Of a DNA stretch of 64,000 nucleotides, positions 44,495-63,609 are shown piece after piece. The position numbers were made by a program, and so were the translations under genes. Location of the stretch: assembly GCA_949293335.1 (NCBI GenBank), contig CASFDA010000010.1, positions 2,567-66,566 of the forward strand. The letters are read 5' to 3'. The stretch comes from an uncultured Spirochaetales bacterium. GTDB taxonomy: Bacteria; Spirochaetota; Spirochaetia; Sphaerochaetales; Sphaerochaetaceae. The notes under the pieces are model-generated. The model was not told where the DNA came from. It saw nothing but the letters and a program-made list of their open reading frames with translations, and searched no databases. Position 1 is the first letter of the stretch; each line of letters begins with the position of its first letter.

Positions 44495-44507
44495 GAAGGA
44501 GGTTTTC

Positions 44508-46379: not shown

Positions 46380-47414
46380 ATGTCTGGGAAATATGTAACG
46401 TTCGGAGAAATAATGCTCCGTCTGAAGAGCCCGGAGAGACAGAGGTTCTTCCAGTCTCCGGTTCTAGAGGCAACGTTTGGAGGCGGAGAGGCGAATGTCG
46501 CTGTTTCTCTGTCTTTCTTCGGGGATGATGTATCTTTCGTGAGTGCTGTTCCCGATAACGCGATTGGCGAAGGATGTCTGCGCGAATTGATGAAGTACGG
46601 GGTGGACATATCCGCAATCAATAAAGTGAAGGATTCACGTCTTGGCGTATATTATCTTGAGACAGGAGCAAACCAGCGTCCTTCTTTGGTTGTGTATGAC
46701 AGGAGTGGATCTGCAATTTCGAATGCAAAGCCATCTGATTTCGATTTCGATGGAATCATGAAGGATGCGAAGTGGTTCCATGTAACAGGAATCACCCCTG
46801 CAATCAGTCAGAGCGCCGCAGATTGTGCCCTTTCTGCAATGAAAGCTGCAAGGAAGGCTGGCGCCAAGGTCTCAATTGACCTCAATTACAGGAAGAAGTT
46901 ATGGAAATACGGCAAGTCTGCAGTCGAAGTCATGCGCGAACTTACCAAATATGCAGATGTGGTGATCGCAAATGAGGAAGATATACAGAAGTGCCTGGGT
47001 ATAGAAGCAGATAGCGATGTAACGAGCGGCGAGCTTGATACAAAGGTATATCAGAAGCTTGCTGAAGAGGTTAAGAAGGAATTCAGCAATGTTTCTGTAG
47101 TGGCAATAACGCTCAGGGAAAGTAAATCTGCAGACAGGAATGGATGGTCTGCCGCTCTTTCCGGAAAAACCGGATTCTATCTTTCTCGTCACTATGACAT
47201 CACAGATATAGTGGACAGGGTAGGCGGAGGAGATTCCTTTGCAGCAGGAATAATCCATGCCCTTTCACACTCTGATGATGAGCAATATGCAATCAACTTT
47301 GCTGTGGCCGCTTCATGCCTCAAGCATTCGATCGATGGTGACTTCAACCTCACTAGGCTCAGTGAAGTAGAGGCGCTATGCAAAGGCGATGGAAGCGGAA
47401 GGGTACAAAGGTAA
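46380..47414 (+). CDS. kdgK: 2-dehydro-3-deoxygluconokinase (PfkB family)
   Basis: FGGGEANVAVSLSFFG near the N-terminus and DRVGGGDSFAAG (PfkB signature 2). 344 aa. Confidence 0.8.
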   Translation: MSGKYVTFGEIMLRLKSPERQRFFQSPVLEATFGGGEANVAVSLSFFGDDVSFVSAVPDNAIGEGCLRELMKYGVDISAINKVKDSRLGVYYLETGANQRPSLVVYDRSGSAISNAKPSDFDFDGIMKDAKWFHVTGITPAISQSAADCALSAMKAARKAGAKVSIDLNYRKKLWKYGKSAVEVMRELTKYADVVIANEEDIQKCLGIEADSDVTSGELDTKVYQKLAEEVKKEFSNVSVVAITLRESKSADRNGWSAALSGKTGFYLSRHYDITDIVDRVGGGDSFAAGIIHALSHSDDEQYAINFAVAASCLKHSIDGDFNLTRLSEVEALCKGDGSGRVQR

Positions 47415-47425
47415 GGAGGACTGAT

Positions 47426-48388
47426 ATGACAAAAGACGAGATATTCAATTTCTTCCATGATCTCGGAATAGTTCCTGTTATCAAGATAGATGATGCCGAT
47501 AAGGCAATTCCTCTTGCCAAGGCCCTCATCGAAGGTGGCATGCCATGTGCTGAGATAACATTCAGGACAGCAGCTGCTGAAGAGGCCATAAGGAAAATGA
47601 GTGAAGCTTTCCCCGAGATGCTCATAGGTGCTGGAACAGTCATCAATCCTGAACTTGCACAGAAGGCGGTCAAGGCGGGAGCCAAGTTCATTGTTTCTGC
47701 TGGTCTCAATCCGGATACTGTCAAATGGTGTGTGGCCAACGACATACCAGTTGTCCCTGGCGTATGCACCCCAAGTGAGATCGAAACAGGGTTATCCTTA
47801 GGCTTGAATGTTCTCAAGTTCTTCCCCGCAGAAGCAAGTGGGGGAGTCGGTATGCTGAAGAATTTCCAGGGACCTTTCTCCCAGGTCAGATTCATGACAA
47901 CAGGGGGAATAAATCCTTCAAATCTCTCAGATTATGCTAAAGCTCCGAATGTTCTTGCTGTAGGTGGCAGCTGGATGGTCAAGGATGCTCTCATCAACGA
48001 AGGCAACTGGGCAGAGATAACAAGGCTCTGCAAAGAGGCAACAACTCTCATGCAGGGTTTTGAGATCGTTCATGTCGGTTTCAACAACAAGAATGAAGAA
48101 GAGGCAACAAAGGTCGCCGAGGAATTTGAAAAGTTCGGATTCTCAACGAAAAAAGGTTCTTCTTCTACTTTCGTGAACAAGGAAATCGAATTGATGCACA
48201 AAATGTTCTATGGAACTCATGGGCATATTGCGATAAGAGCGAATGATTTGGAGAGAGCTGTGTTCTATCTTGAAAAGAAAGGATTCTCAGTTGTCAAAGG
48301 AACAGAGAAGTTCGATGCGAAGGGAAAAATGAAGGTCTGCTACATCGAGCCTGAAGTCGCTGGTTTTGCAATCCATCTTGTCAAATAG
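47426..48388 (+). CDS. eda: KDPG/KHG aldolase fused to a C-terminal VOC (glyoxalase-like) domain
   Basis: Eda part: CAEITFRT (Glu) and LKFFPAEASGG (Schiff-base Lys). Residues from about 215 to 320 (EIVHVGFNN...HGHIAIRANDLERAVFYLEKKGF...FAIHLVK) look like a single VOC module. ATG 47426 lies behind TAAGGAGGA. Confidence 0.8.
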   Translation: MTKDEIFNFFHDLGIVPVIKIDDADKAIPLAKALIEGGMPCAEITFRTAAAEEAIRKMSEAFPEMLIGAGTVINPELAQKAVKAGAKFIVSAGLNPDTVKWCVANDIPVVPGVCTPSEIETGLSLGLNVLKFFPAEASGGVGMLKNFQGPFSQVRFMTTGGINPSNLSDYAKAPNVLAVGGSWMVKDALINEGNWAEITRLCKEATTLMQGFEIVHVGFNNKNEEEATKVAEEFEKFGFSTKKGSSSTFVNKEIELMHKMFYGTHGHIAIRANDLERAVFYLEKKGFSVVKGTEKFDAKGKMKVCYIEPEVAGFAIHLVK

Positions 48389-48949: not shown

Positions 48950-49621
48950 ATGACAGATAAACAATATAAAACAAAGAGCGATATGGTATACCATAAAATG
49001 CGGGAATCTATATTCAAGGGAGAATATACGCCCGGTGAGAGAATATTCGTTTCCGTGGTAGCTGAACAATATGGAATAAGTGAGATTCCTGTCCGTGAAG
49101 CCTTCAGAACCCTTGTGCAGGAAGGTGTTCTTACTTCCAAACCGAACAATGGATTCTTCATAAGCCAAATATCATTGAAGGAAGTCAAAAATATATTCAG
49201 AGTACGTGTTCTTTTGGAATCAATGGCAACTAAAGAAGCATGTAACAATATTACGGAAGAAGGTATAGCCTCTCTTGAGTCATTATATCAGGAAGGACGT
49301 GCGTTTATCAGTTCTGGTGATTTTTCTGGCTACTGGAAGCACAACAGAAAATGGCATTTCATGATTTATAGCTTCTCTGGAAACGATGTGCTTGTAAGAC
49401 TTATTTCTGAACTTTTTGATTTCTCTGCCCGCTATCCACTGTATTTCACTAAGAAAGAAGAGATAGAGGACTCCATGGTTGTACACCGGCAGATTATAGA
49501 AGCATTGAAGGAAAGGGATGCTGATGAAGCTGAAGCCCTGATACGAATTCATACTCTCGATACACGCAATCACTATGTAGCGAGGTTGCAGGAAGTCTTT
49601 GGTGAAAGACTGGGGGATTAG
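48950..49621 (+). CDS. GntR-family transcriptional regulator (FadR/FCD subfamily)
   Basis: wHTH VVAEQYGISEIPVREAFRTLVQEGVL plus a helical FCD-type C-domain. 223 aa. Confidence 0.9.
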   Translation: MTDKQYKTKSDMVYHKMRESIFKGEYTPGERIFVSVVAEQYGISEIPVREAFRTLVQEGVLTSKPNNGFFISQISLKEVKNIFRVRVLLESMATKEACNNITEEGIASLESLYQEGRAFISSGDFSGYWKHNRKWHFMIYSFSGNDVLVRLISELFDFSARYPLYFTKKEEIEDSMVVHRQIIEALKERDADEAEALIRIHTLDTRNHYVARLQEVFGERLGD

Positions 49622-49623: not shown

Positions 49624-50721
49624 ATGAACATCAATGCAGTCAGGACCACTATTCTCAAAAAACCTGTACAGAAAAGCTTTGGAAGTTCTGGCCATAACTA
49701 TAATGTCGGCGGTTATCTCCTGACACAAGTATTTACGGATGAAGGACATGTTGGTAACGCTCTTACATATTTTGGGCTGATCGAGTCCGGGATGAAGACG
49801 ATCAAACTCGTTATTGACTCTGAATTGACACCTCTTCTTATTGGAAAGGATCCGCATTTCGTTCGCCAGATAAGAAGAGAGATGTTTTCTCATCTTTCAT
49901 ATTACGGGACTACGGGAATATCCACGATTGCCATATCTGCTGTGGACATTTGCCTATGGGATCTCATAGGCAAGGATGCTGGTGTCCCGTCTGCATTTGT
50001 CCTTGGTGCTTCAAGAAAATCTGTTCCAGCATATGCGATGGTTGGCTGGTATTACCAAGGAGGTATAGCTGATTTGGTTGATGCTTCGATCAATGCTGTC
50101 GAGGAAGGATTCAATGCTATAAAGATAAAAGTTGGGAGAGGGAATCTTTCTGATGATATTGAAAGGATCAGGGCTGTCCGGTCTGCAGTCGGAGATGATA
50201 TCAGGATAATGGTTGATGCAAACTGTGCTTTCGATGAAAGTGAGGCTCTCCATAGAGGACAGTATTACCAGGATGAAGGTGTTTTTTGGTTTGAAGAACC
50301 TTTGGATCCTTATTTTCTCGAAGGGCATAGGAGGCTAAGGGAAAAACTTTCAATCCCCATTGCCATTGGGGAGAACTATTACACCAAATATCAATTCCAG
50401 CAGGCAATTGACATGAAGGCTGCCGATATCCTACAGCCGGATAACAGGCGGGCAGGGGGAGTAACTGAATGGATGGACATCGGTTCCATTGCATCTGTGC
50501 ATAGGCTGAAGATCGCAAGTCATCTGGGTGGCCCGGGGAATGTTAATGTCATGTGTGCCATCGAGAATGTTATCTATCTGGAGTGCGAAGGCATAAAGAG
50601 GGACAACGAAATGTACGAACATCCCCTTACTATGACAGATGGAAAAATAGTTTTGCCTGACGTGCCTGGAATGGGAAATGAGATAAGAGAAGATTTCATA
50701 GAAAAATACAGGATTTGTTAG
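49624..50721 (+). CDS. enolase-superfamily enzyme, mandelate racemase subgroup (acid-sugar dehydratase-like)
   Basis: KIKVG (KxK), MVDAN / FEEP / IGEN metal ligands, QPD ... ASH (Asp-His dyad). Confidence 0.8.
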   Translation: MNINAVRTTILKKPVQKSFGSSGHNYNVGGYLLTQVFTDEGHVGNALTYFGLIESGMKTIKLVIDSELTPLLIGKDPHFVRQIRREMFSHLSYYGTTGISTIAISAVDICLWDLIGKDAGVPSAFVLGASRKSVPAYAMVGWYYQGGIADLVDASINAVEEGFNAIKIKVGRGNLSDDIERIRAVRSAVGDDIRIMVDANCAFDESEALHRGQYYQDEGVFWFEEPLDPYFLEGHRRLREKLSIPIAIGENYYTKYQFQQAIDMKAADILQPDNRRAGGVTEWMDIGSIASVHRLKIASHLGGPGNVNVMCAIENVIYLECEGIKRDNEMYEHPLTMTDGKIVLPDVPGMGNEIREDFIEKYRIC

Positions 50722-50749
50722 TTGGCATGTTATGAAAAGGAGGGTTTGA

Positions 50750-51889
50750 ATGAAGATCACATCGTGTACAGCTATGATATTGAGAACACCTGTTTCTAGA
50801 CCTTTCACATCTGCTAGAGGCTGGTGGTACAAGACAAAGAATGCAATGCTAGTGCATATCGAGACAGATGAAGGTATTGATGGATGGGGCGAGGCATATG
50901 GACCTGCTGAATGTACGAAGCAGGTTGTGGATTCTCTTCTTGCTCCTCTTCTTGTCAATCAGGATCCGTTGGATACCAATGTCCTTTGGGAGAAAATGTA
51001 TCAGCGCATCGAGGATTACGCTCCTCAGGGGTTCGGTGTCGCTGCAATCAGCGCAATAGATATTGCATTATGGGATATAAAAGGTAAGTTTTTCGGACTT
51101 CCTGTATACAAGTTACTCGGAGGAGCTCACCGGCTATCTCTTACTCCTTATGCAACAGGGCTTTACTTTACAGAAGAAGATGGTGATTTCATAACTCCTG
51201 CTGTTTCTGAGGCAATTAAATACAAAGAAATGGGATTCAAAGGCATAAAAATGAAGATTGCCTTGAATAGAAAGGAAGAATTGGAAAGGGTGAAGGCCGT
51301 AAGGGAAGCAATCGGGCCAGATATTGAATTGATGGTTGATGCGAACCATGGGTATAGCCTCTATGACGCAATATGGCTTTCAAAAAAATTCGAAGATTTG
51401 GAGATAAGCTGGTTTGAAGAACCTATTTCACCGCATGACCTGAAGGGGTATGCAGATTTGAGGACAAAAACATCCATTCCTCTTGCAGGAGGAGAGAACA
51501 ACTTCACCCGTTATGCCTTCAAAGATATTTTGGATGAACGTGCCATGGATATCATTCAGCCAGATCTCTGTTGTGCAGGCGGTATAACAGAAGTGATGAG
51601 AATTGCCTCTATGGCAGAAGTTGCGGGGATCACCTGCATGATGCATGTCTGGGGATCTGCTGTAGGTCTTTTTGCTGCATTGAACGTGATGGCCGCTCTT
51701 CCGCCTAGTCCGCATTCTTGGAAACCTGCACCAGTTTGGATGGAATATGAACAGACAGAAAGTCCGTTCCGTGAAAAGCTTGTTACAGAACCGATCAGAC
51801 GAGAGAATGGAGAAGTATACGTTCCTCAGTCCCCGGGACTCGGTTTCACCATAAACATGGATATCGTAGAAAAATATAGGGTCAAGTAA
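50750..51889 (+). CDS. enolase-superfamily enzyme, mandelate racemase subgroup, second paralogue
   Basis: IKMKI (KxK), MVDAN / FEEP / GGEN, QPD ... MHVWGS. Confidence 0.8.
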   Translation: MKITSCTAMILRTPVSRPFTSARGWWYKTKNAMLVHIETDEGIDGWGEAYGPAECTKQVVDSLLAPLLVNQDPLDTNVLWEKMYQRIEDYAPQGFGVAAISAIDIALWDIKGKFFGLPVYKLLGGAHRLSLTPYATGLYFTEEDGDFITPAVSEAIKYKEMGFKGIKMKIALNRKEELERVKAVREAIGPDIELMVDANHGYSLYDAIWLSKKFEDLEISWFEEPISPHDLKGYADLRTKTSIPLAGGENNFTRYAFKDILDERAMDIIQPDLCCAGGITEVMRIASMAEVAGITCMMHVWGSAVGLFAALNVMAALPPSPHSWKPAPVWMEYEQTESPFREKLVTEPIRRENGEVYVPQSPGLGFTINMDIVEKYRVK

Positions 51890-51901: not shown

Positions 51902-52918
51902 ATGTTCAGAATTCTACTTTCACATCCCCTTTGCGAGGAGGGGATGAGGAAACTCTACACTTTTGATGACATTTCCGTAACTGTTGCAAACGAGGATACT
52001 CCCGAAGGTATATTGCCATATCTTGTAGATGCAGACGCTTTTATCCTTCGTGTTGGCAGTGTCAGCGGCGATATGCTCAGAATGTGCAATAAGCTCAAAG
52101 TTATTGCTAGGCCGGGTGTCGGTGTCGATACTATTGCAGTTTCAGAAGCTACGGCAATGGGTATTCCTGTTGTGATCACTCCAGGAGAAAATAGCCGCTC
52201 TGTTGCAGAACATGTATTTGCTCTGCTCCTCTCCGTTTCAAAAAATCTCTTCGAGAGCAGAAAGGAAGCGCTTCTGGGAAATTACTCTGTCCGAAATAAA
52301 TACAGGTCATTTGAGTTATACGGGAAGACGATAGGGATTGTTGGTTTCGGACATATAGGAAAGCTTGTTGCAAAGATTGCCCAAGGTTTTGGAATGCAGG
52401 TATATGCGTATGACCCGTTTGTCAAAAAGAGTGTAATTGAGGAACAAGGGGTAATTCCTGTGTCTTCCTTAGTAGATATTCTGGAAAAATGCAAAGTCGT
52501 TACACTGCATGTTGCATCAACGGAAGAAACAAGGGGAATGATCAGAAAAGAGACCCTTTACATGATGCAGGATGATTCGATCCTCATCAATTGTGCAAGA
52601 GGCGACCTTGTGAATGAAGAAGATCTTTATGTTGCTTTGAAAGAAGGAAAGCTCATGGCTGCTGCTGAGGATATGATGGCGAAGGAACCTTTCGATCTTT
52701 CCAGTCCTCTCCTGACTTTGGACAATTTCATTGCGACTCCCCATATGGCTGCATTGACAGGAGAGAGTGCTGCGCGATGTGCAATAAAGGCAGTGGAGGG
52801 TGTCATGGCTGTATTGCATAAAAACGAGTGGCCATATGTATACGACAAAAAGGTTTATCAGAGTAGTTCTTGGCTGGAAAGAAAGGAGGAAAAATCTGAT
52901 GCTGATGCGGATAGATGA
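51902..52918 (+). CDS. D-isomer-specific 2-hydroxyacid dehydrogenase (PGDH-like)
   Basis: GIVGFGHIGKLVAK, ARGDLVNEEDL, TPHMAALT. Confidence 0.85.
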   Translation: MFRILLSHPLCEEGMRKLYTFDDISVTVANEDTPEGILPYLVDADAFILRVGSVSGDMLRMCNKLKVIARPGVGVDTIAVSEATAMGIPVVITPGENSRSVAEHVFALLLSVSKNLFESRKEALLGNYSVRNKYRSFELYGKTIGIVGFGHIGKLVAKIAQGFGMQVYAYDPFVKKSVIEEQGVIPVSSLVDILEKCKVVTLHVASTEETRGMIRKETLYMMQDDSILINCARGDLVNEEDLYVALKEGKLMAAAEDMMAKEPFDLSSPLLTLDNFIATPHMAALTGESAARCAIKAVEGVMAVLHKNEWPYVYDKKVYQSSSWLERKEEKSDADADR

Positions 52919-53165
52919 TAAAGACAATGTGGCAGTCGTACTAGTTGATGGGAAAAGGGGAGATGTGCTGAAATGCGGGAATCTGACCATTAAGCTTTTA
53001 TCTGACATTCCGTTTGGCCATAAATGCGCTCTTCAGGAATTCAATGTGAATGACTTGATTATCAAATATGGTCATCCCATTGGTTATGCTACGGAGAAAA
53101 TTTCATGTGGCGAGATTGTCAGGGAAAACAATATGAAAGGCCTGAGAGGCAGGGGTGATATATGA
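52899..53165 (+). CDS. UxaA-family dehydratase small subunit (SAF domain; SuyA-like)
   Basis: MLMRIDDKDNVAVVL...SDIPFGHKCALQEFNVNDLIIKYGHPIGYAT matches the N-terminal SAF domain of altronate/galactarate dehydratases. ATG 52899 lies behind AAAGGAGG. Overlaps the upstream gene by 20 nt. Confidence 0.75.
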   Translation: MLMRIDDKDNVAVVLVDGKRGDVLKCGNLTIKLLSDIPFGHKCALQEFNVNDLIIKYGHPIGYATEKISCGEIVRENNMKGLRGRGDI

Positions 53166-54370
53166 ACAATCTGTGTTTTTATGGGTATAGGCGCCCTGAC
53201 GGTCAAGTAGGTGTCAGAAATCATGTCCTCATTATACCTTCATCAAGAGTATGCAATATCATTGCAAAACGTATTGAATCCTATGTGAACGGCGTGAAGG
53301 CAATAACAACAACAGGCGAAGTATGTCGGCATAGCAAAGACAGAAAACGTCTTTCCGATTTGTATGTTGGCCTCGCGCTAAATCCAAATGTCTATGGCAC
53401 CATCATTCTTGCTCAGAAGAGGAACAATGGTTATCCGGAAATGAAGGCTGAGAGCCTTTTTGATCGAATTCAGATAGCGGGAAAGCCATGTATTGTCCTT
53501 TATATGGATGAGTGTGGTGGCCAGAACTTCCTTGTCGAAAAAGGCATTGACGAAGCGCGTGAACTTGTACGGCAGGCTTCAGCAGAAAGCAGGGTAAAGG
53601 AATCTCTGCAAAAACTACAGATCGGTGTCAAATGCGGATGGTCAGATGCGACTAGTGGAATCAGTGGCAACCCGACATTCGGAAAGGCGGCAGACCTTTT
53701 GATTGAAAATGGGGGAACGGTTCTCTTTTCAGAGACGACAGAATTAATCGGAGCAGAGGAGATTCTAGCAAAGAGATGTGTCAATAAAGAAGATGGAGAA
53801 CGTCTTCTGAAAATGGTGGAACTAGTCGAGACTGCGGCAAAAGCCACAGGAGAGGACATAAGGACAATAAACCCGATACCTGCAAATATTGCTGCTGGAA
53901 TAACAACGTTAGAGGAAAAGTCATTAGGCGCTGTCCGGAAAGCAGGGACAAAACCAATTTCCGGGGTTTTGGATTATTGTCAGAGACCAACCGGGCATGG
54001 CCTATATTTCATGGATGGATGGGCATCCGCCTTTTCTCTTCCTGCCAGTTTGGCTGCGGCCGGATGTGCTATCACTCTTTATCAGTTAGGGGGAGGGGAT
54101 CTTCCTGATGATCCTCCGATGCTGGGGACTAATACGGCAGTTGTTGCGCCTCTAATGTATGTTACGGGTAATCCACACACAGCTGAGAAAGCAAAGAAAA
54201 GCATAGATTTTTCGTCTGCTGATGTTCTTATTGGGAAAACTTCATTAGAAGAAGCGGGATCTGATCTTTTGAAGAAAATCATAAGTGTTGCAAATGGCGA
54301 GTATGCGAAAGGCGAGACGGTAAAGTATCAGGATCTGATAGAACCCTATTTCCTGGGACCTGTTTTCTAG
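53162..54370 (+). CDS. UxaA-family dehydratase large subunit (GarD/UxaA C-terminal domain; SuyB-like)
   Basis: 402 aa starting FYGYRRPDGQVGVRNHVLIIPS, the usual start of the UxaA catalytic domain. ATGA overlap with the small-subunit gene. Confidence 0.8.
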   Translation: MNNLCFYGYRRPDGQVGVRNHVLIIPSSRVCNIIAKRIESYVNGVKAITTTGEVCRHSKDRKRLSDLYVGLALNPNVYGTIILAQKRNNGYPEMKAESLFDRIQIAGKPCIVLYMDECGGQNFLVEKGIDEARELVRQASAESRVKESLQKLQIGVKCGWSDATSGISGNPTFGKAADLLIENGGTVLFSETTELIGAEEILAKRCVNKEDGERLLKMVELVETAAKATGEDIRTINPIPANIAAGITTLEEKSLGAVRKAGTKPISGVLDYCQRPTGHGLYFMDGWASAFSLPASLAAAGCAITLYQLGGGDLPDDPPMLGTNTAVVAPLMYVTGNPHTAEKAKKSIDFSSADVLIGKTSLEEAGSDLLKKIISVANGEYAKGETVKYQDLIEPYFLGPVF

Positions 54371-54379: not shown

Positions 54380-55258
54380 ATGCGTTTGGTAATGTATTTT
54401 GACAATGGAACGAATCGATTTGGAATGCTGTTGAATGACAAGGTATATGACTGTGCCAAGATTGCATCAGAAATAGGTCTTTCTGCTGACATGTCATCAC
54501 TTAGTGCTCTTCTGTTTTCCTGTGATGACTGGTTCTCTTGCCTTGAGATGGTAGAAGATCAGATCAGAAGAAAGGATTATCAGTACATCCCATTTGACAA
54601 ACTCAAATTCCTGTCTCCTGTTACAGATCCGGAAAAGGTATTGGGTGTCGCTCTGAATTATAGGGATTTCTGTATTCGAGGTAATCTGGAGATCCCTAAG
54701 AAACTGAAGGTATTCGGGAAATACAGGAATGCAATATGTGCTTCCGGCGATGAAGTAGATATCAGAGGACGTAATGTCACATATGAGGGTGAGATTGGAG
54801 TTGTAATCGGGAAGAAAGGCAAGAATATTCCTAAAGAAAAGGCAATGGATCATATCGCAGGATATACAGTCATCAATGATTTTACAGCGAACGATCTGAC
54901 CAAGGAGGATGTGCAGCTTTTCAGAGGAAAGAATTTTGATGGTTTTCTCCCAATGGGACCTGTGTTTGTGACGAAAGACGAAATTGATGATATTGACGAC
55001 CTTTGTATTGTCACTTCGGTGGATGGAGAGATGCGGCAAGATTCGAAGGCTGAGAATATGATATTCAAGATACCGGAACAGATAGAGTTCTTTTCTTCTT
55101 TCATGACTCTGGAACCTGGTGATGTGATTCTTTCCGGAACACCTGCTGGAACAGCTACACAATTTTCGCCACCGAAATTTCTACAGGATGGACAGATTGT
55201 CTCTGTGAAGATTGATGGAATATGTACGCTTACTAATAAGATAGTGAATTTCACATAA
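54380..55258 (+). CDS. fumarylacetoacetate hydrolase (FAH) family protein
   Basis: YEGEIGVVIGKKG, GYTVINDFTANDL, RGKNFDGFLPMGP, LEPGDVILSGTPAG are the classical FAH-fold blocks. Confidence 0.85.
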   Translation: MRLVMYFDNGTNRFGMLLNDKVYDCAKIASEIGLSADMSSLSALLFSCDDWFSCLEMVEDQIRRKDYQYIPFDKLKFLSPVTDPEKVLGVALNYRDFCIRGNLEIPKKLKVFGKYRNAICASGDEVDIRGRNVTYEGEIGVVIGKKGKNIPKEKAMDHIAGYTVINDFTANDLTKEDVQLFRGKNFDGFLPMGPVFVTKDEIDDIDDLCIVTSVDGEMRQDSKAENMIFKIPEQIEFFSSFMTLEPGDVILSGTPAGTATQFSPPKFLQDGQIVSVKIDGICTLTNKIVNFT

Positions 55259-55347
55259 CTTAAATATTTGTATTATAAATAATTATTTAGCTATTTACTA
55301 CAAAGGTAGTGAATATAAGTTTGTTACAACCCATAAAGGAGGAAAAA

Positions 55348-56328
55348 ATGGGAAAAAGGAGTTTGTTTTTCGTTCTTGTAATGTTCTTGGCCATTACAGT
55401 TGTATTCGGTGGAGGAAGCAGTGATTCTGATAAGGCGATTAATCCACGGCCGTCAGATGTAATCATTTATGGAGGAACTACTGGCGGATCATGGAACATA
55501 TTCACTACAGTTGTTGGAGAGTTCCTTCCAAGACACATTGAGGGAATTCGTACTACTGTTTCCCCAGGCGCCGCATTCTCAAATGTTCAGGGTGTGAATG
55601 ACGGACAGATAACACTTGCTATTTCAAAATTGCCAACAACAATAGATGGATATAATGGCAAAGCTCCGTTCAAAGCACCTACTGATAAGGTAGTGAACAT
55701 GGGATTCCTTTATGATGAGCATACACATATCATTGTAAACGCTGACTCCGATATATATAGCATCGAAGATCTGAAAGGAAAGAGATGTACGACTTTTGCT
55801 AGGGGAAATACAGCAGAAGTGATTTTCAGGGATCTGCTTTCTGTTTACGACATGACATACGATGATCTCGGTAATATTACTTTCTCAAACCTCAATGACA
55901 TGGCCGAACAATTCAAGGATGGGCTTACCGATTGTCTTTGCTTTGCATCTGCTCTTCCTGTATCTGTCGTACTCGACATTGTCTCATCACGCGATATCCG
56001 CCTGATAGACATCCCTGATGACAAACTTGCCGAGATGCAGGAAATCTCCCCTGCGTATATGCGTCAGATCATTCCTGCTGGAACCTACCAGGGTGTTGAT
56101 ACAGATAACTATACAATGGGCAATGCGCAGCACATGATCGTAAATAGTGAACTGGATGAAGAATTCGTATACGAAATGACAAAGGCTATTGTTGAAGAGC
56201 TTCCAGCAATAGGGCAGGGACACATAGTGTATGCAAATCTCACAGCTGAAGAGATGGCTAGGGATCTTGGTATTCCTATGCATCCAGGTGCAGAACGCTA
56301 TTACAGGGAAATTGGAGTAATGGAGTAA
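55348..56328 (+). CDS. TAXI-family TRAP transporter solute-binding protein
   Basis: Signal peptide followed by IIYGGTTGGSWNIF and a C-terminal HPGAERYYRE, typical of TAXI ('immunogenic protein') SBPs. ATG 55348 lies behind AAAGGAGGA. Confidence 0.8.
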   Translation: MGKRSLFFVLVMFLAITVVFGGGSSDSDKAINPRPSDVIIYGGTTGGSWNIFTTVVGEFLPRHIEGIRTTVSPGAAFSNVQGVNDGQITLAISKLPTTIDGYNGKAPFKAPTDKVVNMGFLYDEHTHIIVNADSDIYSIEDLKGKRCTTFARGNTAEVIFRDLLSVYDMTYDDLGNITFSNLNDMAEQFKDGLTDCLCFASALPVSVVLDIVSSRDIRLIDIPDDKLAEMQEISPAYMRQIIPAGTYQGVDTDNYTMGNAQHMIVNSELDEEFVYEMTKAIVEELPAIGQGHIVYANLTAEEMARDLGIPMHPGAERYYREIGVME

Positions 56329-56382
56329 TTAGTCATCGTGGGAGGTGAGAACCTCCCACAGTCTAGGAAAACTGGAGGAAAG

Positions 56383-58353
56383 ATGATGAGCGACGAAAAA
56401 GTCATCAACAATAGTGTTCAGGAAGAGATTGCAAATACAGACAGTCTCATTACAAAGAGGGAGAGTTTTCCAACAAATATAAACGATTGGATTGTATGGA
56501 TAGTAGCTCTTTGTTTTGCAGTTTTTCATCTATATACAGCAGCTACGGGATCATTGTTGGCTCTTTATCAGAGGTCAATACATTTTGCGTTTGCCGGCTT
56601 TCTCGTATTTTGGCTTTGTCCTTCGAAGACATCAAATTCCAAAACGAAAAAGGTCTTAAAGGTTTGGGATGTATTCCTATCTCTCTGTGCTGTCATACCT
56701 GTTCTTTATTTGATATTTAATGAAGAACTGATAATAAATCGATTCTATTACATTGAAGATCTTGAGTGGTACGAGTATCTGTTTTGTGCAATGCTAGTGC
56801 TTGCCATTCTGGAAGGAACGAGAAGAAAGATGGGTAAGGCTTTGCCAATTATCGCTCTTGTGGCAATAGTCTACATGCTCTTCGGCCGGTATCTTCCTGG
56901 TGTGCTTGGAAACGGAGGATTTTCTCTCATTGCCTTCGTTGATACAATATATATGACGACAGAAGGACCGTTTGGCATTGCCCTTGGTGCATCTGCGACT
57001 TATGTTGTACTTTTTGTCATCTTTGGATCTTTCCTGGAGTATTCAGGGGTAGGTGAATATTTTATCCGTGTTGCACGAACGCTTACGAAGAATTCGACAG
57101 GAGGGCCTGCAAAAGCTGCTGTCATTTCATCATGTCTCTTTGGGTCCATTTCAGGAAGTACGATTGCAAATGTCGCGACCACAGGACAAATAACAATCCC
57201 TCTGATGAAGAAAACAGGCTATTCTAGTGTGTTTGCCGGTGCTGTTGAAGCCGTTGCTTCCACAGGAGGACAGATTATGCCTCCAGTAATGGGCGCAGCC
57301 GCATTCGTTATGGCAGAATATACGGGTATTCCTTATGGTCAGATCATTATTGCAGCTATGATCCCCGGTATCTTGTATTATCTTGCTGTTTTCGTGATGG
57401 TCCATTTCGAAGCGAAGAAGCTTGGGCTTCTTCCAGAAAAGAGTGTCGATCCGACATTGACATTCAAATCGCTTATCAAGGATACGTATCTTTTCATACC
57501 TCTTGTAGTCCTTGTTGTTTACCTTATCCTCGGTTATTCTGCGACATTCGCTGTCCTGAGAGCATTGATTGCTATTTTTATTGTTTCTCTTTTCAAAAAG
57601 GAAACTAGGCTCGGCCTGAGAAGAATTCTCAATTGTCTTGTAAGTGGAGCGAAAGAATGTGTCACTGTCGCGCTGGCTTGTGCTTGTGCTGGCATTGTGG
57701 TTGGCATTGTCAACTACACAGGACTCGGGACACGTCTTAGTGCAATGATCGCAACTGTTGCAGGAAACAGCTTGTTCTTGGCTCTTGTCCTCACTGCAGT
57801 TTGCTCCTTGATTCTTGGTATGGGACTTCCGACAACACCAGCATACATTATTGTGGCAACTCTTCTTGTTCCTACTATCAGGAGTTTCGGAGTCTCTGTG
57901 ATGGCTGCACACCTCTTTGCATTCTATTTTGCAAACGTTTCTGCTATCACTCCTCCAGTAGCACTTGCAGCATATACCGCAGCAGGTCTATCAGGTGCAT
58001 CACCAATAAAGACAGGGTACAAAGCGTTCGCACTGGGTATTGCATCTTACATGGTGCCATTCCTATTTGTGTATAATCCTGTTCTCTTGTTTGATTTTGA
58101 CAGTGTTCTCAAGCTCATACAGGCGATTATCACATCTTGTGTCGGTATCATCCTTTTGGGAATAGCTGCAGAAGGTTTCTTCTATCGCAAGGAAAAGATC
58201 TGGGAACGGATACTGCTTTTCATTGCTGCTATTGGTCTGATTGATTCAGGAACACTCACAGACATTGTTGGAATTGTAATTGTACTTATCGTGATTGTAC
58301 CTCAGATCATCCAGGAACTAAAACAGCGCAAGACAGAAGTTCCTGCAGTATAG
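56383..58353 (+). CDS. TAXI-type TRAP transporter fused permease
   Basis: About 656 aa with many TM segments, immediately downstream of the TAXI SBP. This is the architecture of fused 4TM/12TM TRAP permeases. Confidence 0.8.
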   Translation: MMSDEKVINNSVQEEIANTDSLITKRESFPTNINDWIVWIVALCFAVFHLYTAATGSLLALYQRSIHFAFAGFLVFWLCPSKTSNSKTKKVLKVWDVFLSLCAVIPVLYLIFNEELIINRFYYIEDLEWYEYLFCAMLVLAILEGTRRKMGKALPIIALVAIVYMLFGRYLPGVLGNGGFSLIAFVDTIYMTTEGPFGIALGASATYVVLFVIFGSFLEYSGVGEYFIRVARTLTKNSTGGPAKAAVISSCLFGSISGSTIANVATTGQITIPLMKKTGYSSVFAGAVEAVASTGGQIMPPVMGAAAFVMAEYTGIPYGQIIIAAMIPGILYYLAVFVMVHFEAKKLGLLPEKSVDPTLTFKSLIKDTYLFIPLVVLVVYLILGYSATFAVLRALIAIFIVSLFKKETRLGLRRILNCLVSGAKECVTVALACACAGIVVGIVNYTGLGTRLSAMIATVAGNSLFLALVLTAVCSLILGMGLPTTPAYIIVATLLVPTIRSFGVSVMAAHLFAFYFANVSAITPPVALAAYTAAGLSGASPIKTGYKAFALGIASYMVPFLFVYNPVLLFDFDSVLKLIQAIITSCVGIILLGIAAEGFFYRKEKIWERILLFIAAIGLIDSGTLTDIVGIVIVLIVIVPQIIQELKQRKTEVPAV

Positions 58354-58362: not shown

Positions 58363-59676
58363 ATGGAAGGTACTCAGATAAAGTCTGTGATGGCAAGACA
58401 GGTTTTCTCTGGAAGGGGAGAACCTGCAATCGAAGCAACAGTCATAACGAATAACGGTGGGAAGGGAACTGTGCAGGTTGTCTCCGGTCTTTCTATCGGC
58501 ACACATGAAATTGCTTTCAAATTCGATGGAAAGAGTGAATGGCGTGGTCGAGGAGTAGGTAACGCCGTCAGAAGCATAACAGAAGAAATAGGACCAGCCA
58601 TCATCGGTATGGATGCAACAAAACAGGCAGAAGTGGATGATGTGATCTTGAATCTTGGAGGAAGCGATGCGAAACAAAGATTAGGAGGAAATGCTGTCGC
58701 TGCAGTTTCTGCGGCAGTCCTCAAAGCTGGAGCTGAATCGCTGGGAATACCGCTTTACAGGCATATCGGAGGAGAAAGGGCTATTACCCTTCCTTGTGCA
58801 TCGTACGGATGTGTCAGTGGTGGAATAAGGTACAGCGAAGGAATCAAGAGTGGAAGTAAACCCACTTATTCTTTCATCGGTTTTGGTTTTTCATCTTTTG
58901 CAGAAGCTTCATACGCTCTCTTTGAAGTCTTCTCAAAATGGGAAACGAAGATGAATTCAAGATATGGCTTGCGATCTCAGGAACCATCTCCATATTATAC
59001 TTGTTCTGGATTTTTCAGCATTCCAAAAGGTGTGATTGAAAGTGATAAGATCCTGTGGGATGAAATGACAGAGACAATCAATTCTTGTGGGTATGAAGGC
59101 CGGATCGGGCTTCAGGCGGATTTGGCTGCTGACTGTTACTTTGATCGGAAAACACAGGTATATCAGGGACTTTTCAATTCAGATCCACGAAACCGTGAAG
59201 AACAGATTGAATTTGTTGCCTCTCTTGTTGAGAAATACCCTTTTGTCATCATAGAGGACCCTCTGATGGAAGATGATTTTGAAGGCTTCAGAATCCTTTC
59301 TGAGAAGACAGGTATACAGATAGTTGGAGATGATCTGTTTACAACAAATATAAACCGTGTAAGAGAGGGGATAAAGCAGAAAGCAGGCAATACAGTCCTG
59401 TTGAAAGTCAATCAGATTGGATCAATATCAGAAGCACTGGAGATGATACAGCTTGCTTATGAGAATGGATATGGTGTCATGCCATGCTCAAGTAGGGGAG
59501 AAGGTATAGATATCTGCGACTACAGTGTTGGAATCAATGCAGGCAGTATCCGAGAATCCTCTTTGGGTACCCCAGGAACTCGTTTCCTGGAGATTGAGAA
59601 GGAATTGGGTTCTCTGGCCAGATATCAAGGAATCAAAGGTCTGAAGGGAAAGAAATTCCAGAAAGGAGAAGTTTGA
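58363..59676 (+). CDS. enolase-like protein A (non-canonical active site; general-base Lys retained)
   Basis: Collinear with enolase: FSGRGEPAIEATV, VSGLSIG, ADLAADCYF, IIEDPLMEDDFEGF, VGDDLFTTN, LLKVNQIGS. However, YSFIG, TCSGFFSIP, CSSRGEGID and SIRESS replace the QEFMI, GDEGGxAP, SHRSGETED and QIKTGS segments. Confidence 0.7.
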   Translation: MEGTQIKSVMARQVFSGRGEPAIEATVITNNGGKGTVQVVSGLSIGTHEIAFKFDGKSEWRGRGVGNAVRSITEEIGPAIIGMDATKQAEVDDVILNLGGSDAKQRLGGNAVAAVSAAVLKAGAESLGIPLYRHIGGERAITLPCASYGCVSGGIRYSEGIKSGSKPTYSFIGFGFSSFAEASYALFEVFSKWETKMNSRYGLRSQEPSPYYTCSGFFSIPKGVIESDKILWDEMTETINSCGYEGRIGLQADLAADCYFDRKTQVYQGLFNSDPRNREEQIEFVASLVEKYPFVIIEDPLMEDDFEGFRILSEKTGIQIVGDDLFTTNINRVREGIKQKAGNTVLLKVNQIGSISEALEMIQLAYENGYGVMPCSSRGEGIDICDYSVGINAGSIRESSLGTPGTRFLEIEKELGSLARYQGIKGLKGKKFQKGEV

Positions 59677-60953
59677 TGAAGCGATCTAGAATTGTCTCCG
59701 TCAGGGCCATTGAGGCATATTCTGACAGGATGACATCTGCCATAAAGGTTTACGTTGAAACAGAAAGCGGAAAAACCGGAAGCTCTTTGATATGTTCGGG
59801 ATTATCGACAGGAAAGTATGAAAAACCGTTTCTGTATGATGCCGATTCTCGTTTTTCCGGAAAAGGATGCAGAAAGGCTGTCGACTTGATCAATGCAGAA
59901 ATCGGAAAACATCTGATTGGCCTGGATGCGGGAAGTCAGCACCTCTGTGATGAAGTTCTGCTCTCTTTTGGTAAGGAACGAGTTGGTGCAAATACTACAG
60001 CGGCCATTTCGACGGCCATACTGTTTGCTGGCGCTGAGTCTCTTGGAATACCTGTTTACAAGCATATAGGTGGAGTGAGGGCTTCAACTCTTCCTGTCCC
60101 ATCTGCATTAGCCGCAAGTGGTTCTGCCCGATACGGGAATTCTGTGCAATGTGGATATAAACCTTCGTATTATTTTGTCTCTTATGGTTATGAAACATAT
60201 TCTGAGGCATCGAAGGCGTTATGGGAAACTTTCATGGCATGGAATGATCTGATGAAAGAAAAACTCAAAATCAAGATGCAACCCATTGCAGGAATGGCGA
60301 TTCCGAAAGGAAAACTTCCCGATGACTTTGCTTTATGGGAACTTCTTGCTGATGCTATAAACATATCTGGAAATAAAGGCAAGGTTGGCCTTTCTGTCGA
60401 TGTTGCAGCGGCATGCTTCTACAATCATGAGAAAAAAGTATATGAGGGACTTTTCTCCGAAGGTTCAAGAACTAGAGAGGAACAGATTGATCTGATTGTC
60501 AGTATGACAAAAGACTATCCTTTTTTGATTGTGGAAGACCCTTTGATGGAAGATGATTTCGAGGGATTTAGTGAAATTACTGCCAGGACTGATATCCAGA
60601 TTACAGCAGATGATCTGACTGCATCTGATAAGAAGAGAGTTGAAACGGCGATTTCAGAGAAAGCAGGGAATGCTATCAAAGTAGTTACATCGCAGATTGG
60701 AACTGTCTCTGAAATAATAGACCTGGCCCTTTTTGCGAAAGAACGTGGCTTTGGCATTGTCACTTCTGGCGAGAGGGGAGAAGGACTTGCTTCATGTGAT
60801 TATGCTGTTGGTCTGAACGCAGGAACGGCAGGAGAGAATGGAATGTGCTATTCGGGGAACAGACTTCTTCAGATCGAGAGCGAACTTGGTAGAAGGGCGC
60901 GTTTTTTCGGGCAATACGGCATAAAAGGTAAACGATTTCAGTTATCTGATTAG
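59676..60953 (+). CDS. enolase-like protein B (non-canonical; catalytic Lys position substituted)
   Basis: CSGLSTG, VDVAAACFY, IVEDPLMEDDFEGF and TADDL are retained. VVTSQIG replaces KVNQIG. TSGERGEGL and GTAGENG replace the SHRSGETED and QIKTGS segments. The ATG shares one base with the stop of protein A. Confidence 0.7.
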   Translation: MKRSRIVSVRAIEAYSDRMTSAIKVYVETESGKTGSSLICSGLSTGKYEKPFLYDADSRFSGKGCRKAVDLINAEIGKHLIGLDAGSQHLCDEVLLSFGKERVGANTTAAISTAILFAGAESLGIPVYKHIGGVRASTLPVPSALAASGSARYGNSVQCGYKPSYYFVSYGYETYSEASKALWETFMAWNDLMKEKLKIKMQPIAGMAIPKGKLPDDFALWELLADAINISGNKGKVGLSVDVAAACFYNHEKKVYEGLFSEGSRTREEQIDLIVSMTKDYPFLIVEDPLMEDDFEGFSEITARTDIQITADDLTASDKKRVETAISEKAGNAIKVVTSQIGTVSEIIDLALFAKERGFGIVTSGERGEGLASCDYAVGLNAGTAGENGMCYSGNRLLQIESELGRRARFFGQYGIKGKRFQLSD

Positions 60954-60958: not shown

Positions 60959-62464
60959 ATGATGATGAGGGTATTAAATAAAAACTCACTGCTTTCTCAT
61001 GGTAACAGAGAGGGACGGAAGATTGCTCTTGATATACTGGAAAAGGGACTAGCTGCAGCAGATCCTTATGACAATACATTGAAGATACTTCGTCGTGATG
61101 GAAATATTATTTCACTTGGCAATGACGAATTTGTCCCTAAAGGATCACCTCGCACTGGCATTGATGAATATATCATTGGCAAGGACATAGATAGAATATT
61201 CGTTTTTGGTGCGGGAAAAGGCATTCAGAGAATTGCAAAAGCCATAGAGGATGTACTTGGAGATGCCATTGCTGGTGGTCTGATCATTGTGAAGGACCAT
61301 GACGAACATTCTTTGTCACACATGGATGTCTGTTATGCAAGTCATCCTGTTCCAGATGAGAGCTGCTTGACTGCAAGCAAAAGACTTCTGGAAAGCATCA
61401 ATAAAGCAAAACTTACAGACAGGGATCTTGTTTTTGTGATAATTGGCAATGGTGCCTCTTCAATGATGACTTATCCTTGGGATGGAATAAGTCTTGATGC
61501 TGTAGCGGACGTTACTAGGATTCTCCAGATAGAAAAGGGATTGATTACTCCTAAATTGAATATTGTGCGCAATCAGTTGGACAGACTCAAGGGAGGACGG
61601 ATTACCCGATATCTGGCAAAGGCAAAGCTTGTTCATCTTTTCCCGATCGATCTTGATGAACCTAATGCATACAATGCTAGCGGATATTATGGACATCTCC
61701 ATAATAATTTTTGGCTTCATTCTCTTCCTGATATAAGCACTCCTGAAAAGGCAGTAGACATTCTGAAGGCGAGTAACACATGGAATGAGGTTGATGCATC
61801 AATCAGGGATTATCTTCTCAATGCTCCTACGGAAAATGGAGTTCTTTCTCCTGAGGAGTTTGAAACGTTTGACAATAGAATCTTCGGACTCATGCCACAA
61901 AAGTATAATTTCATTTCTGCCGTGATGAATTACTCGCGTGAAATAGGTTACGAGCCTCATTTCCTCATGCGAAGAACTTTTGTTGATGCATCTACAACCG
62001 GTGAATTGATAAGTCGTATTGCTCTTAATGTGGAAAATGAGAAAGAACCTTTTTCCTCTCCATGTCTTTTGCTCCTGACAGGCGAGATGATAGTTGCTGT
62101 AGATGGGAAGAAGGGGATCGGCGGACGGAATCAGGAATTTGCCTTAGGAGCTGCGAAAGTTCTCTCCGGCAGCAAACGTATTGTCAGTGTATCTGTCGAT
62201 ACAGATGGAACCGACGGCCCAGGTGGTGATTTTGATCCTGATGCAACAAGACTTGGGTGCAATTGCCTTTCTGGCGGAATTGTTGATGGGTACACGATTT
62301 ATGAGGGGAATGCAAAAGGCATTGACTTTTGCAGGGCACTAGAGATGCACGATGCATCCAATGTTCTCTGGAATACGGACAATGGAATATGGTCCATGCA
62401 TAATATCAGCATTCAGGATCTGATCTTCATGCTTGTAATGGATCATGACGGAGGTACGCAATGA
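60959..62464 (+). CDS. MOFRL-family kinase (glycerate 2-kinase / TtuD-like; DUF4147 + MOFRL domains)
   Basis: IFVFGAGKGIQRIAKAIE (DUF4147 part) and SVDTDGTDGPGG (MOFRL part). 501 aa. Confidence 0.75.
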   Translation: MMMRVLNKNSLLSHGNREGRKIALDILEKGLAAADPYDNTLKILRRDGNIISLGNDEFVPKGSPRTGIDEYIIGKDIDRIFVFGAGKGIQRIAKAIEDVLGDAIAGGLIIVKDHDEHSLSHMDVCYASHPVPDESCLTASKRLLESINKAKLTDRDLVFVIIGNGASSMMTYPWDGISLDAVADVTRILQIEKGLITPKLNIVRNQLDRLKGGRITRYLAKAKLVHLFPIDLDEPNAYNASGYYGHLHNNFWLHSLPDISTPEKAVDILKASNTWNEVDASIRDYLLNAPTENGVLSPEEFETFDNRIFGLMPQKYNFISAVMNYSREIGYEPHFLMRRTFVDASTTGELISRIALNVENEKEPFSSPCLLLLTGEMIVAVDGKKGIGGRNQEFALGAAKVLSGSKRIVSVSVDTDGTDGPGGDFDPDATRLGCNCLSGGIVDGYTIYEGNAKGIDFCRALEMHDASNVLWNTDNGIWSMHNISIQDLIFMLVMDHDGGTQ

Positions 62465-63609
62465 ATAAAATAGATTTCAGGAAAAGACAATTGGCTCTTG
62501 CTGAAAATCTCAGGAAAGAGAATATAGATGCATATCTAGTTACACGTCAGGGTGGTCTGCATTATCTTTGCGGGGTGTTCATGCCATGGAGGGGTGTTGC
62601 TCTAGTAACGAGGAATGGAGATGCTATTCTGTTTTACTGGTGTGGAGATTCGTCTCGTGTCATTCAGGATGATCCCCACATGGAAGTGATAGAATACGAT
62701 GGCAATGAGCTATTTCCCAAAATTATTTCCCATCTTCGTTCTCTCGGAATAATGTCCGGACGTCTTGGCGTTGATCTGATTCTTGGTGGGAATGCCCAGA
62801 TTGCCCCAGGAATGCTGACGGCATCAGAATATCTGGAATTGTCTGGGTATAAAGAGTATCAGATAGTAAATGCTGTAAAGTGCCTTGACGATCTGCTGTT
62901 AATAAAAGAAGATGCCGAACTCGAGAGACTGAGAAAGGCTGCAGAGATTGCTGACTATGGTTATGAACAAGCACTTTCTTCAATCCATCCTGGAATGACG
63001 GAGAATCAGGTTGCCGGCATATTGGAAAAGGCAACTAGAGATAGAGGTAGTTATTGGGCTTGGTCAGTCACTGCAGGTACCGAGGTTGGTTCTGGGCCGA
63101 GGACAGCATTTTCTCATGGGGTGACACAAATTGCCACGGATAGGCAGTTAAGAGAGAATGAATTTGTGATCCTTGATTTCCATCCCTGCTTTGATTTGTA
63201 TTTGTGCGATTTCAGTGTTCCTGTATTCTTGGGTACTCCTAACGAAGAGCAGCGGATTTTGATAGAATGCTGGGAGGAAGCAGTAAACACCGTATTTTCA
63301 CATATCAGTCCCGGAGTTGTAATCGCAGATGCTGTCGCAGCGGGAATTGAAGTCTATAGAAGATATGGTCTTTACGAATATTGTCTCCCACGATTTGGTC
63401 ATGGTCTTGGAGTTTGTGTCAGGACTCCACCTTCTCTGAATCTTAATAATAGAAATACGTTCCAAAAGGGAATGACATTCGCATTCGGAGCCCATCTTTA
63501 CAAACCTGGAGTCGGTGGTTTGCGACTTGAGTATCCTGTTGCAGTAGGAGAGAAATCTGCAATACAGATAGCATCAACTCCAATGAAAGTGCATTTTGTA
63601 TCTTGCTGA
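62461..63609 (+). CDS. M24-family (creatinase/prolidase fold) protein
   Basis: Creatinase_N-like N-domain plus pita-bread domain blocks FVILDFHPCFDLYLCDFSV, GHGLGV and GGLRLEYPVAV. ATGA overlap with the kinase gene. Confidence 0.7.
   Translation: MNKIDFRKRQLALAENLRKENIDAYLVTRQGGLHYLCGVFMPWRGVALVTRNGDAILFYWCGDSSRVIQDDPHMEVIEYDGNELFPKIISHLRSLGIMSGRLGVDLILGGNAQIAPGMLTASEYLELSGYKEYQIVNAVKCLDDLLLIKEDAELERLRKAAEIADYGYEQALSSIHPGMTENQVAGILEKATRDRGSYWAWSVTAGTEVGSGPRTAFSHGVTQIATDRQLRENEFVILDFHPCFDLYLCDFSVPVFLGTPNEEQRILIECWEEAVNTVFSHISPGVVIADAVAAGIEVYRRYGLYEYCLPRFGHGLGVCVRTPPSLNLNNRNTFQKGMTFAFGAHLYKPGVGGLRLEYPVAVGEKSAIQIASTPMKVHFVSC

Follow-up and report, generated by a model that had tools for sequence, protein, structure and literature searches.

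What function is served by two adjacent genes for enolase-like proteins that directly precede a kinase gene? This question is raised by a 64,000-nucleotide stretch of DNA from an uncultured Spirochaetales bacterium (the window, by which we mean this whole stretch), in which the two genes, here termed A and B, are followed by a gene for a protein with DUF4147 and MOFRL domains. A first-pass annotation had proposed that A and B form a heteromeric enzyme with one inactive subunit, acting on a carboxylate other than the enolase substrate 2-phosphoglycerate (2-PG) and possibly on a product of the kinase. Our analysis places A and B in a conserved family that, together with the linked kinase, probably constitutes a kinase-coupled lyase distinct from enolase and acting on a 2-phospho acid. 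As the best overall explanation we tentatively favor a phosphorylate-then-eliminate module that would yield phosphoenolpyruvate (PEP), with sulfolactate as the preferred substrate.

Two translationally coupled enolase-fold proteins

Gene A occupies positions 58363..59676 of the forward strand and encodes 437 amino acids, and gene B follows at 59676..60953 on the same strand. The size first reported for A stands; the 426 residues reported for B are obtained only if an upstream TTG (59673) is counted, and the ATG at 59676 gives 425 residues, a start that is backed by an exact database match of 425 residues. The exact A protein has no database record. As noted in the first-pass annotation, the last base of the TGA of A (59674–59676) is also the first base of the ATG of B, which is preceded by a GGAG-type ribosome-binding site. 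The TAG of B ends at 60953, and the junction coordinates confirm a spacer of 5 nucleotides before the kinase ATG at 60959.

The open reading frame calls, Pfam searches and alignments with solved enolases all support the reading of A and B as a tandem pair with full-length likeness to enolase. Both proteins matched the Enolase_N and Enolase_C models of Pfam (e-values 1e-24 to 3e-45) and aligned end to end with solved enolases (A, e-value 6e-77; B, e-value 1e-54; 2pa6), and they share 43% identity with each other (e-value 1e-129). An AlphaFold2 (AF2) model of A (pLDDT 88, pTM 0.88) recovered canonical enolases in Foldseek with TM-scores of 0.82–0.86 at 30–36% identity, and no closer structure. 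Weak matches of A to MR_MLE_C were also obtained. Thus, A and B are full-length enolase-fold proteins encoded by translationally coupled genes. In searches with TIGR01060, the NCBIfam equivalog model for enolase, they scored only 282 and 214 bits respectively, both below the trusted cutoff of 300.

Remodeling of the active site

We mapped the active-site residues by pairwise HMMER alignments and by a 235-sequence MAFFT alignment, anchored on the Escherichia coli and Methanocaldococcus jannaschii enolases, and the two methods agreed; positions below follow canonical (yeast) enolase numbering unless given as A's own. S39, D246, E295, D296, D320 and D321 are kept in both A and B, in line with the initial claim that the Ser loop and the Mg-ligand motifs persist. 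The features typical of the superfamily, namely three metal carboxylates (D253, E298 and D323 in A's own numbering) and the general base (K348), are found in the barrel domain of A. This base, equivalent to K345, is replaced by Val in B, as had been suspected, and a Lys of B sits two residues before the lost base (AIKVVTSQIG).

The remaining catalytic positions of canonical enolase are replaced in both proteins. A and B have T and S, respectively, in place of E168, and S and G in place of H373; at the position of E211, A has S and B has I or A. Of the residues that serve the carboxylate in canonical enolase, Q167 has become P in both proteins and K396 is R in A and a G or a gap in B; of those that serve the phosphate, R374/S375 has become S/R in A and E/R in B, and H159 has become R in both. 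The pocket of A furthermore displays the family-specific residues R156, Y157, K166-P167, C375, R378 and R397-E398. With an Arg at 375, H159 replaced by R and the S39 loop for the second Mg (Mg2) kept, the phosphate site was probably shifted and not destroyed. The replacement of the H373 and K396 segments reported in the first-pass annotation was recovered in this mapping. That of the QEFMI segment likewise stood, but its register did not: in the HMMER alignment E168 is matched by the T of KPTYSF, which lies two residues earlier. Similarly, the GDEGGxAP segment is indeed changed in A, but the claim that B lacks a counterpart proved wrong, since B has QPIAGMAIP, without the acid. Neither correction affects the conclusion on A and B. 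By their conserved features A and B are assignable to the enolase superfamily and to its enolase-fold subgroup; as candidates for enolase itself they fall short in the equivalog score and at E168, E211, H373 and K396.

A conserved accessory family

A search with A recovered more than 120 protein clusters with at least 53% identity, whose members come from Firmicutes, Spirochaetes, Desulfovibrio and Anaerolineae, and further searches extended the family to Chloroflexi and archaea, giving over 200 clusters, mostly from anaerobes. Most members are automatically named "enolase" in the databases. In a scan of 185,579 species genomes (one genome per species) at least 324 loci were found, and because of this sparse occurrence the family gene is accessory. 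The metal ligands, the S39 loop and K345 are nearly invariant in 201 A-type sequences, and so are R156, Y157, K166-P167-(T/S), C375-x-S377-R378 and R397-E398. Positions 211 and 373 vary or fall in gaps, which leaves the site that would face the C3 hydroxyl of 2-PG without a conserved general acid. The E168/E211/H373/K396 set as a whole is absent across about 230 family members, with E168, E211 and H373 giving way to small or variable residues, and the alignment indicates that the pocket gains about three positive charges. As judged from this conservation, the residue changes represent a family signature and not drift. The argument of the first-pass annotation against housekeeping dehydration of 2-PG gains support from these observations: the scores lie below the equivalog cutoff, the acid/base set is missing throughout, and the gene is accessory and in some cases lies on a probable mobile element (see below), all of which supports a family distinct from housekeeping enolase.

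No canonical eno gene was detected within the 64-kb window, no solved structure in the PDB covers the family, and the plasmid collection returned no match. A full-text search of open-access papers recovered no description of the family or of a route with a sulfolactate kinase and a phosphosulfolactate lyase. Where the gene occurs in stand-alone form, it is flanked by unrelated housekeeping genes. Second copies in three loci from Chloroflexi and Spirochaetales (L048, 12278-13522; L077, 11359-12603; L080, 2044-3297; all on the reverse strand) were considered as canonical enolases and rejected, as they constitute a third subtype of the same family. They are divergently encoded beside an A-type gene, share 35–39% identity with A, and keep the Lys and the metal ligands, with Tyr at the H159 position and C-G-S-R at 372–375.

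Repeated retention of a degenerate partner

In the tree B belongs to a single clade of about 30 clusters nested within the family, which indicates one duplication. Members of this clade keep the metal ligands and most of the family-specific pocket residues, and the Lys is always replaced (by V, A or S). In 83% of the clade an Arg is found two residues upstream of the lost Lys, at the position where B of the window has a Lys. Among 80 species loci, 23 (about a quarter) carry two enolase-like genes and 57 carry A alone, and of the 18 tandem pairs that are complete and on one strand, 17 have a downstream gene without the Lys. A second class of partner, 31–39% identical to A or B, is encoded directly downstream of A in seven loci (L016, L017, L018, L019, L024, L026 and L041). 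These have lost E295 and/or D320 in addition to the Lys, and remain intact open reading frames between A and the kinase gene.

The prediction of one probably inactive subunit is thus supported by both partner classes, the B clade being consistently Lys-less and the second class having also lost metal ligands. From these patterns, together with the Pfam, NCBIfam and AF2 results, A is put forward as the catalytic protein, and its partner as a repeatedly retained degenerate paralogue; B, as assigned from Pfam, the alignments and the tree, is probably non-catalytic. Enolases are dimers, and since the two genes are translationally coupled an A–B heterodimer is the natural expectation.

Linkage to a remote glycerate 2-kinase relative

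The DUF4147 and MOFRL kinase gene of the window (60959..62464, forward strand) encodes a remote relative of glycerate 2-kinase and is the conserved partner of the enolase-like gene. Both domains are present, and against the two glycerate 2-kinase equivalog models the protein scored 109 bits (cutoff 550) and 97 bits (cutoff 670). Family-linked kinases in general scored 85–109 bits against the cutoffs of 550–670 for the characterized glycerate 2-kinases. To quantify the linkage we considered the 47 loci that extend 1.7 kb or more to either side. A DUF4147/MOFRL gene lies within 300 nucleotides in 41 of these and, in four more, at a distance of about 6 kb but still in the operon; none is found within 10 kb in the other two. 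Adjacency or a shared operon thus ties the kinase to the enolase-like gene in 45 of 47 loci. The linkage extends over Firmicutes, Spirochaetes, Desulfovibrio, Chloroflexi/Anaerolineae and Bathyarchaeia, which supports the functional link to the MOFRL kinase suspected earlier.

Operon context of the family

In the window the pair lies in a long forward-strand operon headed by a GntR/FCD regulator (48950..49621). It is followed by two tandem acid-sugar-dehydratase-like proteins of the MR_MLE type (49624..51889; 365 and 379 amino acids; enolase superfamily), a D-isomer-specific 2-hydroxyacid dehydrogenase identified with Pfam and NCBIfam (51902..52918), and a split enzyme of the UxaA/GarD family (52899..54370), with a SAF small subunit of about 88 amino acids (52899-53165) and a GD_AH large subunit (53162-54370). 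Next come an FAH-family protein (54380..55258), a candidate 2,4-dioxo-acid hydrolase of Route III yielding pyruvate and a 2-hydroxy acid, and a TAXI-type TRAP transporter (55309..58353) with a solute-binding protein (55309-56328) and a fused permease (56338-58353). The transporter components exceed the NCBIfam cutoffs (TIGR02122, 211 bits; TIGR02123, 645 bits), and it is the putative importer of the carboxylate substrate of the operon. After A, B and the kinase, the operon ends with an M24 (creatinase/prolidase-like) hydrolase gene (62461..63609), which overlaps the kinase stop by 4 nucleotides and is translationally coupled to the kinase gene; the contig ends about 0.8 kb beyond it. This gene order recurs as one type of neighborhood, and only in operons of this type is the M24 gene conserved, at their end; the M24 gene fits none of the pathway schemes that we considered. 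The MR_MLE tandem, a second pair of enolase-superfamily paralogues in the same operon, is also conserved in loci of this type, and its best matches, an archaeal arabinonate dehydratase and L-talarate/galactarate dehydratase, are well below cutoff. The upstream half, from the GntR to the FAH gene, stands without enolase-like genes in Alicyclobacillus tolerans (split UxaA at L097 9690-11203). In Route III of Watanabe et al., a dehydratase, a 4-dehydrogenase and an FAH hydrolase generate pyruvate and a 2-hydroxy acid, which is glycolate from pentonates and lactate from 6-deoxyhexonates (PMC6336799). The upstream genes match this chemistry, which by extension would deliver glycerate from hexonates or sulfolactate from 6-sulfohexonates.

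A second type, from about 20 loci of gut and rumen Clostridia, combines a single A and the kinase with an AraC regulator, Ldh_2, KDPG aldolase, SDR, aldo/keto reductase, aldehyde dehydrogenase, PfkB, an isomerase-like protein, class II aldolase, DUF4867 and sometimes RhaM. The only NCBIfam match of the isomerase-like protein is SftI (e-value 6e-31), and it has no match in the PDB. DUF4867 (SqvB/SftX) is accompanied by a class II aldolase of the SqiA family, the best match of Ldh_2 is L-sulfolactate dehydrogenase (similarity to ComC), and the aldehyde dehydrogenase is of the GabD/SlaB type. In a third type, from Enterocloster lavalensis and Lachnospiraceae, A is found with a Liv-type ABC transporter, a group-22 nickel-pincer isomerase, the kinase and a SorC-type regulator. 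Archaeal and Chloroflexi versions either carry a Fucose_iso_C isomerase together with PfkB and a DeoC-type aldolase or consist of just A and the kinase; sulfofructose kinase and aldolase belong to the PfkB and DeoC families, respectively. The larger contexts would all yield a C3 2-hydroxy acid (R-CH2-CHOH-COO-) with its C3 substituent derived from C6 of a sugar or sugar acid.

The most compact neighborhoods are minimal modules with an RpiR or GntR regulator, TctCBA, A, B, the kinase and LarA, and a similar module is found in Desulfovibrio. They encode no further enzymes, which implies that the product is a central metabolite and that the substrate is a small, importable and racemizable 2-hydroxy acid; import, racemization, phosphorylation and the A/B step would be enough to connect the substrate to central metabolism. 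In three independent metagenome assemblies (L091-L093, 5621-15400) the RpiR-type module lies between TnpV, integrase, relaxase/MobC and recombinase genes, suggesting that it travels on a mobile element.

A predicted phosphorylation and elimination module

In the mechanism that we favor, the MOFRL kinase would phosphorylate the 2-hydroxyl of a C3 2-hydroxy acid, and A would bind the resulting 2-phospho-carboxylate on two Mg ions in an enolase-like manner. K348 of A (the K345 equivalent) would take the C2 proton, and a C3 substituent that needs no general acid would be expelled to give PEP. B would pair with A as a catalytically impaired paralogue that is dispensable in A-only lineages. The residues on which this proposal draws are the ligands of the first Mg, the S39 loop (which provides an Mg2 ligand and binds phosphate), K345, and the invariant cationic R156, K166, R378 and R397. 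Loss of the acids, gain of cationic residues and retention of the Mg2 loop and base would be explained if the 2-phospho acid carried at C3 a group that leaves more readily, and a bulkier anionic group departing without acid catalysis is expected to fit such a site.

Sulfolactate is our tentative choice for the specific substrate. (S)-Sulfolactate would be converted via 2-phospho-3-sulfolactate to PEP and sulfite, an alternative to SuyAB that would be ATP-neutral because the phosphate is recovered as PEP. In the window, the TRAP importer, dehydratases, dehydrogenase and FAH protein would serve to split a 6-substituted hexonate into pyruvate and a 3-substituted lactate. By our own stereochemical reasoning, the (S)-sulfolactate derived from sulfoquinovose (SQ) is spatially like D-glycerate, and so would suit both a homologue of D-glycerate kinase and a K345-type base without inversion. 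Both enantiomers of sulfolactate are natural, and known degraders need a racemizing step (PMC9594981); the LarA or dehydrogenase genes seen at family loci agree with this. The complete route, with a MOFRL sulfolactate 2-kinase and an enolase-fold phosphosulfolactate sulfite-lyase as a new means of desulfonation in anaerobes, is a possibility that we advance more guardedly still. Other simple substrates fared worse. Lactate, which a 6-deoxy sugar would yield, was rejected as it has no beta leaving group; plain glycerate is disfavored, since a second enolase stripped of its acid catalysts would be pointless; and tartrate or malate is unlikely in view of the lactate-type LarA and the ATP cost.

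Several observations weigh against sulfolactate. In more than 90 loci the surroundings of the module show no recurrent gene for a sulfite exporter, a sulfite reductase or a GH31 sulfoquinovosidase; likewise, in a test for sulfoglycolysis, a YihQ sulfoquinovosidase or a sulfonate/sulfite exporter recurred in none of the loci examined, which offered only weak SftI-like, DUF4867, SqiA-like and ComC-like neighbors. The SftI and ComC similarities lie far below the equivalog cutoffs, and DUF4867 occurs mostly in ordinary ketose clusters. In comparisons with PDB entries the aldehyde dehydrogenase scored equally to sulfolactaldehyde and glyceraldehyde dehydrogenases, and aldolase, aldehyde dehydrogenase, MOFRL kinase and enolase together are also precisely the set that handles glycerate in the lower branch of the non-phosphorylative Entner-Doudoroff pathway. 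The LarA encoded in the minimal module falls in the lactate-racemase group (537 bits, cutoff 460), and its specificity position is occupied by Q, as in LarAH43, which prefers glycerate (PMC11770544). The UxaA pair, if it were SuyAB, would be partly redundant with the proposed route, and among close homologues of its large subunit no relative is named SuyB, all having generic names.

Alternative explanations

A glycerate-type substrate is the serious rival. In its best form, which we consider unlikely, A would be a dehydratase of another 2-phospho-3-hydroxy acid, converting 2-phospho-L-glycerate to PEP. The L-glycerate would come from L-hexonates or L-sugars, and the acid/base machinery would be rearranged, for example with K348 as the acid and K166, Y157 or C375 as the base on the other face. 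These newly conserved residues could indeed catalyze, no activity other than that of glycerate 2-kinase is known for the kinase family, a hexonate hydrolyzed by Route III would yield glycerate, the LAR-group LarA with its Q would fit this acid, and no sulfite-handling genes are seen nearby. However, a racemase feeding the ordinary D-glycerate route would lead to the same result and would require no new enzyme, and the LarA of the module makes an L-specific branch needless. Furthermore, the variable or gapped positions 211 and 373 leave no conserved acid at the C3 hydroxyl, and the roughly three added positive charges exceed what a neutral hydroxyl requires.

We regard as improbable a reaction that does not lead to PEP, be it a dehydration at the expense of ATP, in which the phosphate is eliminated (phosphotartrate giving oxaloacetate would be an example), or a lyase or epimerase reaction on the unphosphorylated acid ahead of the kinase. 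Phosphate is a good leaving group that would fit the cationic pocket, TctC-type transporters often carry di- or tricarboxylates, and the conserved Cys/Lys pair could perform a 1,1-proton transfer. Against this, ATP would be wasted in fermentative anaerobes, the S39/Mg2 loop for binding of 2-phospho-carboxylates is conserved, and the LarA is of the lactate and not the malate/tartrate type. More doubtful still is a different C3 nucleofuge, such as the sulfate of 3-O-sulfoglycerate from 6-O-sulfated sugars, an amine or a thiol, or else a longer 2-phospho acid, with the kinase again preceding the lyase. The active-site arguments for these are the same as for sulfolactate, and the glycosidase and sugar-processing genes do vary by lineage, but such free acids are not known as environmental substrates suited to a module of import, racemase, kinase and lyase, and D-sugar acids would need no racemase. 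The weakest alternative, that A (with or without B) is a divergent functional 2-phospho-D-glycerate enolase for glycerate catabolism, has in its favor the full-length fold (TM-score about 0.85), the kept metal ligands and K345, the adjoining glycerate-2-kinase homologue, the database names and the lack of a canonical eno within the window, but is very improbable given that no member has E168, E211, H373 or K396 (in enolase the single changes E168Q and E211Q lower activity about 10^5-fold each), the sub-cutoff scores, the accessory spread and the mobile element.

Relationship to known systems and implications

Relative to canonical enolase (EC 4.2.1.11; TIGR01060, PF03952 and PF00113), the family shares the two-domain fold, the length and probably the dimeric state, along with D246, E295, D320 and the S39 loop; the K345 base is shared by A only, and PEP is probably the common product. 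It departs from enolase in the replacement of E168, E211, H373, K396 and H159 and in the new residues R156, Y157, K166-P167, C375, R378 and R397-E398. Unlike canonical enolase, it is below the equivalog cutoff, accessory, embedded in operons, linked to a kinase, and accompanied by a Lys-less partner in about a quarter of the loci.

ComA of coenzyme M biosynthesis adds sulfite to PEP to give (2R)-phosphosulfolactate. If sulfolactate is indeed the substrate, A would use the same Mg-stabilized enolate chemistry in the opposite direction, a resemblance limited to the proposed chemistry: ComA is of an unrelated family, neither A nor B matched its family in Pfam or NCBIfam, and the context here is catabolic, with a predicted (2S), D-glycerate-like configuration (by Cahn-Ingold-Prelog and stereochemical reasoning) in place of (2R). 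SuyAB, the (2R)-sulfolactate sulfo-lyase of the UxaA/GarD family, would have the same task as the proposed route, namely C-S cleavage with release of sulfite after a racemizing step. It differs in fold and in converting the free acid to pyruvate, whereas the proposed route would spend ATP and recover it as PEP. The window too has a split UxaA-family pair, and SuyAB is the only characterized heteromeric member of the UxaA/GarD superfamily (PMC6336799). The large subunit in the window has 402 amino acids, and its homologues are named only "UxaA family hydrolase"; with such generic names alone among close homologues, an identity as SuyB gained no support. The lower non-phosphorylative Entner-Doudoroff pathway has the same gene logic of aldolase or hydrolase, aldehyde dehydrogenase, MOFRL kinase, enolase-fold protein and PEP. 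The family differs from it in the kinase (109 bits against a cutoff of 550) and in an enolase-fold enzyme without the dehydration machinery.

To our knowledge, of all branches of the enolase superfamily only the enolase subgroup has been treated as isofunctional. This rule would be broken by a large, conserved clade that has given up the dehydration machinery while retaining the metal site and the base; if the sulfolactate reading is true, the clade would be the first of the subgroup with a different function. The labels "enolase" and "phosphopyruvate hydratase" on these genes in hundreds of genomes are then liable to distort metabolic reconstructions. The tight coupling to the kinase points to a portable two-enzyme module. 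With sulfolactate as the substrate, the module would provide a new C-S cleavage route for the turnover of SQ, and would add to the sulfite and H2S that arise as plant sulfolipid is broken down in guts, rumen and sediments. Association of A with a dead paralogue in a heteromer, if real, would be present in many lineages, and the repeated retention of the degenerate partner would offer a clean natural case of a pseudoenzyme evolving beside its active paralogue.

Other genes of the window

Upstream of the operon and on the same strand lies a neighboring acid-sugar operon (35160-48388) with an Opp/Dpp-type ABC transporter, a 474-amino-acid MR_MLE protein, a 2-hydroxyacid dehydrogenase, a Zn-ADH, a PfkB and a KDPG aldolase. 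A further stretch, at about 14000-34000, has a low GC content (29–38%, against 42–49% elsewhere) and carries surface-polysaccharide genes, including those for Caps_synth and GT4 glycosyltransferases, LicD (27969-28880) and an OCD-family protein; it may be a horizontally acquired island. It also encodes a fusion of a nucleotidyltransferase with a class I/II aminotransferase (30362-32206), which we take to be reminiscent of the Treponema CMP-aminoethylphosphonate enzymes.

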